DNA of 64,000 nt from Escherichia coli. GTDB lineage: Bacteria > Pseudomonadota > Gammaproteobacteria > Enterobacterales > Enterobacteriaceae. Both the position numbers and the translations under genes were made by a program. The DNA lies in assembly GCF_050920415.1 (NCBI RefSeq), contig NZ_CP169309.1; one strand, written 5' to 3'. This document shows, one piece after another, positions 44,556 to 44,682 of the stretch. The stretch's first letter is position 1; each line of letters begins with the position of its first letter. The notes under the pieces are model-generated. The model had not been told where the DNA came from. It saw nothing but the letters and a program-made list of their open reading frames with translations, and did not search any database.

Positions 44556-44682
44556 TATACTCTAAATAATTCAAGTTGCAGGAAGGCGGCAAGCGAGTGA
44601 ATCCCCAGGAGCTTACATAAGTAAGTGACTGGGGTGAGCGAACGCAGACGCAGCACATGCAACTTGAAGTATGACGAGTATA
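44556..44682 (+). repeat. ERIC (IRU) element, 127 bp imperfect palindrome
   Basis: TATACTC...GTGAATCCCCAGGAGCTTACATAAGTAAGTGACTGGGGTGAGCG...GAGTATA; matches the ERIC core as I recall it and has the typical 127 bp length. Confidence 0.7.

Follow-up and report, generated by a model that had tools for sequence, protein, structure and literature searches.

Two palindromic blocks of similar sequence stand out in the window analysed here, a stretch of 64,000 nucleotides of Escherichia coli DNA (contig NZ_CP169309.1 of assembly GCF_050920415.1). One lies between panC and rpnC, and the other in the spacer between rpsB and tsf, the genes of ribosomal protein S2 and elongation factor Ts. What are these blocks, and does the one within the ribosomal-protein operon take part in its expression or is it carried along as a passenger? 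A sequence-only reading of the window had described both as ERIC-type repeats and had proposed that the second could affect the polarity of the operon or the stability of its mRNA.

Both blocks are full-length ERIC elements

ERIC elements are hairpin-forming repeats of 127 bases that were described in enteric bacteria in 1990–91 and that form the basis of a routine typing method. Both blocks are full-length copies of this family, which is also known as IRU or RU-1. Copy A occupies positions 44556–44682 on the plus strand, 127 bp counted from TA to TA, in the 3′ untranslated region of panC, and its sequence is near-consensus. Copy B, 127 nt in the sense of rpsB and tsf, is placed at 1908–2034 on the minus strand by its sequence, by the alignment with the consensus and by an nhmmer match (E = 3.8e-38). 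For copy A the interval first read from the letters was exact, and for copy B it moves from "about 1906-2030" to these coordinates. The copies had also been called opposite in orientation, which holds in window coordinates and not relative to the upstream transcripts (panC on the plus strand, rpsB on the minus strand), with respect to which they have the same sense.

The resemblance between the two copies is far beyond chance. A blastn search of the window with copy A returns copy B at 85% identity over 86 nt (E = 5e-23), and a repeat search of the window recovers the two copies as a 111-nt inverted pair at 79%. Aligned without gaps, copies A and B match at 92 of 127 columns (72%), against a mean of 31.7 (sd 4.9) when copy A is compared with all 127-mers of the window on both strands. 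The next-best gapless score after copy B, 66, is that of copy A with its own reverse complement. In the core (columns 9–94), 73 of 86 columns agree, that is 85%, in line with the core identity of about 86% reported earlier. These values, together with the full-length alignment of both copies to the published consensus, leave practically no probability for a chance resemblance of two unrelated palindromes.

Gapless identity to the E. coli ERIC consensus (PMC2759123) is 113/127 for copy A and 100/127 for copy B, and copy A matches a Salmonella SeRU-1 copy at 119 of 127 positions. The published sequences of the ERIC-PCR primers ERIC1R and ERIC2 fit copy A without a mismatch and copy B with three mismatches each. 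With copy A as the query (E ≤ 1e-3), a median of 13 ERIC-like places is found per E. coli genome (range 3–21), so that the count of genomic copies proposed as a check returns a multi-copy element. Both copies share with the family the length of 127 bp, a gapless colinear alignment with the consensus, the conserved central inverted repeat that is the target of ERIC-PCR, a long imperfect hairpin, an intergenic and transcribed position and the presence of many copies per genome. Copy A also has the TA ends and the TA duplication of the family, whereas copy B differs from it in a single respect: the canonical TATACCC/GGGTATA ends are gone and there is no clean target duplication. The assignment of the panC–rpnC and rpsB–tsf blocks to ERIC is thus borne out by the consensus, the primer sites, the hairpin folds, the copy number and the TA duplication of copy A.

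The family is already known and the observation is ordinary. It carries little weight as a discovery, since ERICs have long been catalogued and copy B is present in the K-12 reference genome. The additions made here are modest: the population frequencies of both insertions, evidence that the rpsB–tsf copy is ancient and constrained, and the recognition that half of this copy underlies an Rfam "sRNA" family. For annotation, both 127-nt blocks should be labelled as repeats.

Reviews describe ERIC (IRU/RU-1) as a MITE with TA ends and, in Yersinia, with an orientation-dependent effect on mRNA that involves RNase E. The ERIC literature surveyed names no cognate transposase. Rfam has no ERIC family of its own. 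The Rfam family V_AS5 (Vibrio RNA AS5) aligns full length at 44555–44678 on the plus strand (49.8 bits) and at 1912–2035 on the minus strand (24.3 bits), against a gathering score of 96, and is probably the Vibrio version of ERIC.

Paired changes preserve the hairpin

As RNA, the copies are predicted to form imperfect, self-contained hairpins of 35–42 pairs. The predicted energy is −54.2 kcal/mol for copy A (z = −8.6) and −66.3 kcal/mol for the sense strand of copy B (z = −8.9), the antisense strand of which reaches −51.3; none of 200 shuffles folds as well as copy A or copy B. The RNA folding suggested with the first reading thus returns a long imperfect hairpin for each copy, with z of about −9. 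Neither hairpin is a terminator. This candidate role was rejected, as no T run follows either copy, and in consensus scans the terminator-like sites lie only downstream of the ERICs, at 1852–1874 on the minus strand and at 44685–44707 on the plus strand.

The sequence-only reading had further noted changes on both arms of the palindrome that keep it paired. Among the 35 consensus pairs, 8 differ between A and B on both sides and still pair, with 95.7% of cells paired; when the partner column is slid by 1–3 positions, only 0–2 double-changed pairs are obtained and 31–44% of cells are paired, which upholds the earlier observation. Across 11 copies from all sites, 14 of the 35 pairs have changed on both sides and 93.5% of cells are paired, against 31–43% after sliding. 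The covariation score of these 11 copies is reached by no shuffle, a control that related sequences can inflate. In the set of copies that share the site of copy B, 6 of 42 pairs have changed on both sides, 95% of cells are paired, and the mean pairwise difference is 0.129 in paired and 0.177 in unpaired columns.

Such changes could come from selection on the RNA or from processes at the DNA level, either the fit of both ends to a shared transposase or correction by template switching. Of the eight pairs that differ on both sides between A and B, five belong to the outermost stem of 7 bp, formed by the terminal inverted repeats, which read TATACTC/GAGTATA in A and CTCCCCC/GGGGGAG in B. In addition, different ERIC insertions have different but internally complementary ends, as would suit a DNA-level origin. 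In E. coli, quasi-palindromes are well known to mutate by template switching. A single event of this kind could replace four adjacent outer pairs at once, and the terminal changes alone are therefore no proof of RNA selection. The inner stem speaks against a DNA-level origin: compensatory changes occur there in same-site, apparently immobile copies (pairs 49–78 in Salmonella, 51–76 in Enterobacter sp. Cy-643, and 38–88). Furthermore, G–U pairs are concentrated on the transcribed strand, with 21 G–U cells against 6 A–C cells, an asymmetry expected for RNA and not for duplex DNA. We regard DNA-level processes as a possible but somewhat unlikely source of the paired changes.

Copy A is a young insertion in the panC 3′ end

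The panC gene, encoding pantoate-beta-alanine ligase, occupies 43700–44551 on the plus strand according to the ORF list and the RefSeq annotation, and 4 nt separate the end of its stop codon from copy A. The convergent gene rpnC lies at 44772–45680 on the minus strand (ORF list and annotation). A terminator-like hairpin identified by the consensus scan (44685–44707, plus strand) begins 2 nt after copy A and is also present at empty sites. Copy A is located between the panC stop codon and this retained hairpin, and was thus inserted into the panC 3′ untranslated region. Its position before the hairpin suggests that copy A is transcribed.

Strain MFDS1022581 matches the window at 100% over the panC–rpnC stretch. 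The site is empty in K-12 and in the majority of other strains, with the sequence TACT-TA-ACTGG where the window reads TACT-TA-(123 bp)-TA-ACTGG. Alignment with the empty sites defines the left and right TA target-site duplications at 44556–44557 and 44681–44682, and the copy itself runs from TATACTC to GAGTATA. When the two elements are compared as MITEs, terminal inverted repeats together with a target duplication against a clean empty site are found in copy A only. The element entered at a TA dinucleotide 4 nt past the panC stop codon, with duplication of the TA. An ERIC is present at the panC site in 427 of 5426 complete E. coli genomes (about 8%). Copy A is a canonical, young insertion that is still polymorphic.

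The O55:H7 and O157:H7 strains among the matches listed carry the same panC ERIC as the window with an additional 71-bp insertion between GAGTG and AATCCCC, for example in the panC–rpnC spacer of E. coli O55:H7 RM12579 (L125, positions 185–440). A related internal insert is present in the ERIC of an rpsB–tsf locus, L073, discussed below. An ERIC with such an internal insert looks like a long form of the element.

Beside copy A, the 3′ end of rpnC and the adjoining spacer (44690–44900) are only about 88–91% identical to most E. coli, as against near identity in panC. An additional segment is present in the window at about 44715–44728 (14 alignment columns), with which 44724–44741 reads as a palindrome (ACGTCATGGCGATGACGT). 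By these alignments, the ERIC-bearing haplotype at panC corresponds to a divergent rpnC haplotype. An open reading frame of 100 aa on the minus strand (44428–44730) crosses copy A; it overlaps the repeat and known genes, and in the matching RefSeq records copy A is not spanned by any annotated gene.

Copy B in the rpsB–tsf spacer of E. coli

The rpsB gene occupies 2048–2773 and tsf occupies 939–1790, both on the minus strand (ORF list and annotation). Copy B starts 13 nt past the rpsB stop codon and is followed by the rpsB–tsf attenuator at 1852–1874 on the same strand, an intrinsic terminator hairpin with a subsequent T run that is known from the literature and was recovered by the consensus scan. 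The two genes are transcribed from one promoter; monocistronic rpsB transcripts stop at the attenuator before tsf, with a read-through of about one third (PMC2834685). Long-read studies report stepwise termination at rpsB–tsf. That copy B lies inside a transcribed spacer, as first proposed, agrees with this arrangement of one promoter and an attenuator before tsf (PMC2834685). Both copies are located between a stop codon and the first terminator hairpin, in the same sense, and would thus be transcribed as 3′ untranslated region, which in the case of copy B is the rpsB–tsf spacer.

The rpsB–tsf stretch of the window is at least 99% identical to 5423 complete genomes. The spacer of K-12 matches the 257-nt spacer of the window at 256 of 257 positions, and copy B is therefore the copy of the K-12 reference genome. 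It is present in 4094 of 5424 E. coli genomes. The remaining genomes (about 25%), including CFT073 and an O2:H6 strain, have a 134-nt spacer without copy B, in which 10 nt (ACGCTCGTAC) stand in place of the ERIC block and the flanks are identical to those of the filled allele. The junctions of the two alleles were read by eye from the raw spacers. Since ACGCTCGTAC is found only in the empty allele, no simple insertion or deletion converts one allele into the other. In agreement with this, copy B does not look like a MITE at its borders: the alleles differ by a 10-nt replacement with no visible target duplication, and the ends read CTCCCCC/GGGGGAG in place of the canonical sequences.

In the folding predictions, the filled spacer departs from the empty one solely at the tip of the first hairpin. 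Copy B leaves the predicted fold of the second hairpin, the attenuator and the tsf leader unchanged, so that the comparison with spacers lacking the repeat, proposed in the sequence-only reading, yields identical flanks within E. coli and unchanged downstream structures. Copy B is dispensable, because about one quarter of E. coli genomes and most related genera do without it and the attenuator is unchanged.

An open reading frame on the plus strand (1044–2096), antisense to tsf, overlaps the repeat and known genes, and here too the matching RefSeq records show no gene that runs through the repeat. Full-text searches of the literature that paired ERIC with rpsB and tsf, with RNase III, or with CFT073 and K-12 returned nothing useful.

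Copy B is old and diverges with its flanks

A scan of species-representative genomes provided at least 120 rpsB–tsf loci with 98 complete spacers; E. albertii, E. fergusonii, S. enterica subsp. enterica and S. bongori were outside its scope. Among the loci listed, 13 of the 98 spacers contain an ERIC, in all 13 cases in the rpsB sense, and the median length of the 85 ERIC-free spacers is 134 nt. The site and left junction of copy B are common to at least five of the loci, which belong to another Escherichia (L039), S. enterica arizonae, C. amalonaticus, Enterobacter sp. Cy-643 and Entomohabitans.

At these five loci, in the order given, the ERIC is 97, 91, 93, 88 and 82% identical to copy B. 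As a yardstick of conservation we used protein-guided four-fold degenerate sites of nearby genes at the same loci, compared with the window. In the same order, identity at these sites is 98, 89, 93, 83 and 79% in rpsB; 95, 71, 79, 70 and 62% in tsf; 87, 63, 62, 59 and 53% in map; and 66, 49, 55, 45 and 45% in glnD. The divergence of copy B parallels that of its flanks, an argument for shared ancestry of the copies at this site, and the element has not changed faster than synonymous positions in the very highly expressed rpsB. Copy B is an old insertion, probably immobile after the loss of its canonical TA-flanked ends, that has been passed on together with the flanking sequence in most E. coli and in several other genera. 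Its conservation is far above the neutral expectation, which could equally reflect a positive function or the avoidance of harm.

Filled and empty rpsB–tsf alleles are each found in several genera, a distribution that calls either for lineages to have recombined or for the event to have occurred more than once. Most Citrobacter, Kluyvera and Pseudescherichia have the empty-type sequence of E. coli with a small hairpin, GCTC-GTTA-GAGC, and in the predicted folds the ERIC sits at the tip of this pre-existing hairpin. Copy B would accordingly have inserted long ago in the loop of this small hairpin, past the rpsB stop codon. The junctions suggest that the element entered at the TA of the loop, after which 4 nt may have been lost on the left and the ends converted to runs of C and G.

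ERICs also occur at other TA sites of the same spacer, in Citrobacter youngae CCUG 30791 and Citrobacter sp. On2M (L022 and L088), in Buttiauxella (L093), in a genome labelled Martelella (L073), and in Serratia sp. M24T3 and Rouxiella (L082 and L046). All of them have the rpsB sense and lie between the stop codon and the attenuator. The use of different TA sites implies at least four insertion events in this spacer.

Several spacers without an ERIC are 70–120 nt longer than the usual 134 nt, in Mangrovibacter, Siccibacter, "Enterobacter pulveris" and Pseudocitrobacter. Their lengths are 254 nt (L014, L054 and L122), 213 nt (L026, L115 and L119) and 203 nt (L020), and they may carry another inserted element. 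The locus L039 comes from a genome named E. coli strain SCPM-O-B-8794, in which four-fold sites agree with the window at no more than 66% in glnD, against 98% in rpsB; it is either a divergent Escherichia lineage or the carrier of a foreign glnD segment. L073 (Martelella alba BGMRC 2031) has an enterobacterial-type rpsB–tsf locus with a long-form ERIC, unexpected for an alphaproteobacterium, which suggests a mislabelled or contaminated assembly.

The Rfam model of CssrA overlaps copy B

The Rfam model of the small RNA CssrA (chromosome-encoded Shigella sRNA A, RF02798) matches 1853–1962 on the minus strand at 136.6 bits (gathering score 93), over model positions 1–111 of 111. The match covers the 3′ half of copy B and the attenuator hairpin. 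CssrA has been described as an independent sRNA gene, whereas here the match falls within a repeat and the 3′ end of rpsB. It was defined in Shigella flexneri by a northern band of about 110 nt, with the 3′ end set at a predicted terminator and the 5′ end merely calculated from the size of the band (PMC3071730). Table 1 of the same paper lists cssrA between map and rpsB, and not between rpsB and tsf. Either this label or the Rfam seed is misplaced, and given the position in the table the link to the rpsB–tsf spacer comes from the Rfam model alone.

A crude scan of 1700–3200 for promoter-like (sigma-70-like) sites found none, which fits processing better than independent transcription, and the northern band hints at a stable processing fragment. 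Copy B may thus be the source of CssrA, as a fragment of about 110 nt that would remain after a cut within the ERIC hairpin and that comprises its 3′ arm and the attenuator, a reading compatible with copy B being a passenger. It has in its favour the end-to-end match to the Rfam model, the size of the band with its 3′ end at the predicted terminator, and the scan for promoter-like sites. The calculated 5′ end and the map–rpsB position in the table stand against it, and a stable decay fragment need not be functional. Weighing these points, we find it rather unlikely that copy B gives rise to CssrA. Annotators should treat the Rfam CssrA "sRNA" as the rpsB attenuator joined to one half of an ERIC.

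Other Rfam matches above threshold in the window are t44, the rpsB leader RNA (tff in K-12), at 2801–2887 on the minus strand, and the HtrA 5′ UTR thermometer upstream of degP, at 11722–11767 on the minus strand.

Passenger or regulator

ERICs can be viewed as small, transposon-like repeats of enterobacteria without a transposase gene. We consider it quite probable that both copies are ERIC-family elements which are largely passengers of this kind, with the hairpin of copy B kept by selection and with any effect on expression being modest and not needed. In copy B, selection would remove mutations that open the hairpin, as a misfolded insert of 127 nt near the attenuator and the tsf start would be harmful. 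An effect on expression, if any, would be exerted through mRNA processing or decay, by providing an entry site for RNase E or RNase III or by blocking 3′ exonucleases; an effect of ERIC on the decay of the upstream mRNA is plausible. We call the effect modest and not required solely because natural alleles without the element exist.

Precedents for such an effect come from other bacteria. The reviews report that Yersinia ERICs alter the levels of upstream transcripts and that an RNase E site is exposed when a terminating ribosome opens the left arm. The ERICs of Yersinia enterocolitica studied by De Gregorio et al. (2005), as reviews describe them, are located just past a stop codon and are co-transcribed with the upstream gene, like copies A and B. 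Under that model, copy A at 4 nt past the panC stop codon would be close enough for a ribosome to open its left arm. In contrast, copy B is 13 nt from the stop codon and has a G/C-rich outer stem, which makes unmasking by the ribosome less likely. The Correia (NEMIS) elements of Neisseria are likewise small and co-transcribed, with terminal inverted repeats, a TA duplication and hairpins that can be cut by RNases. They are unrelated to ERIC in sequence and host, and the analogy is one of mechanism only.

A different explanation is that copy B is a domesticated regulatory RNA that sets the rpsB:tsf ratio, either by blocking 3′ exonucleases or by providing an RNase III or RNase E site between the cistrons. 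The same-site copies in at least five lineages are 82–97% identical, against 45–66% at the four-fold sites of glnD, and they contain compensatory changes. The terminal stem has been remodelled from A/T-rich to G/C-rich and still pairs, and the common orientation of the 13 spacer ERICs among the loci listed points in the same direction, as do the shifts in upstream transcript levels that the reviews attribute to Yersinia ERICs. However, copy B is missing from about 25% of E. coli genomes, CFT073 among them, and from 85 of the 98 species-level spacers among the loci listed, and neither the attenuator nor the tsf leader shows a compensating change. Domestication of copy B as a regulator is thus unlikely.

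More doubtful still is a specific form of this idea, in which copy B was captured in the rpsB 3′ end and spacer before the split of Escherichia and Salmonella and has since been held by selection, tuning S2:EF-Ts or yielding the CssrA fragment. If this were true, the empty allele of CFT073-like E. coli would be a natural loss-of-function variant. Were copy B to tune rpsB–tsf expression, it would clearly exemplify the recruitment of a mobile repeat by an operon for ribosomal proteins. The reading as a passenger with a constrained hairpin remains the one we prefer.

Other repeats in the window

REP-type palindromic units (GCCGGATGCGGCG...CGCCTTATCCGGCCTAC) are present at 19022–19056, 19107–19141, 53851–53885 and 50647–50677 and form a second repeat family, unrelated to ERIC. 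An assignment of copies A and B to REP or BIME, with a unit of about 35 bp and the REP consensus, was rejected, as the REP copies of the window at 19022–19056 and 53851–53885 have no similarity to A or B.

A 59-nt hairpin with ERIC-like ends is located at 17608–17666, between clcA (16083–17504, minus strand) and hemL (17729–19009, plus strand). Its sequence TATACTCTAAGAAATCAGG resembles the left end of ERIC, and CAGTACAAGCAACCTGACGTTTGACGAGTAT resembles the right end, with 84% identity over 31 nt (E = 5e-4). This stretch is found in 5424 of 5426 E. coli genomes, adjoins the small annotated gene yadX, and may be an ERIC from which the centre has been deleted.
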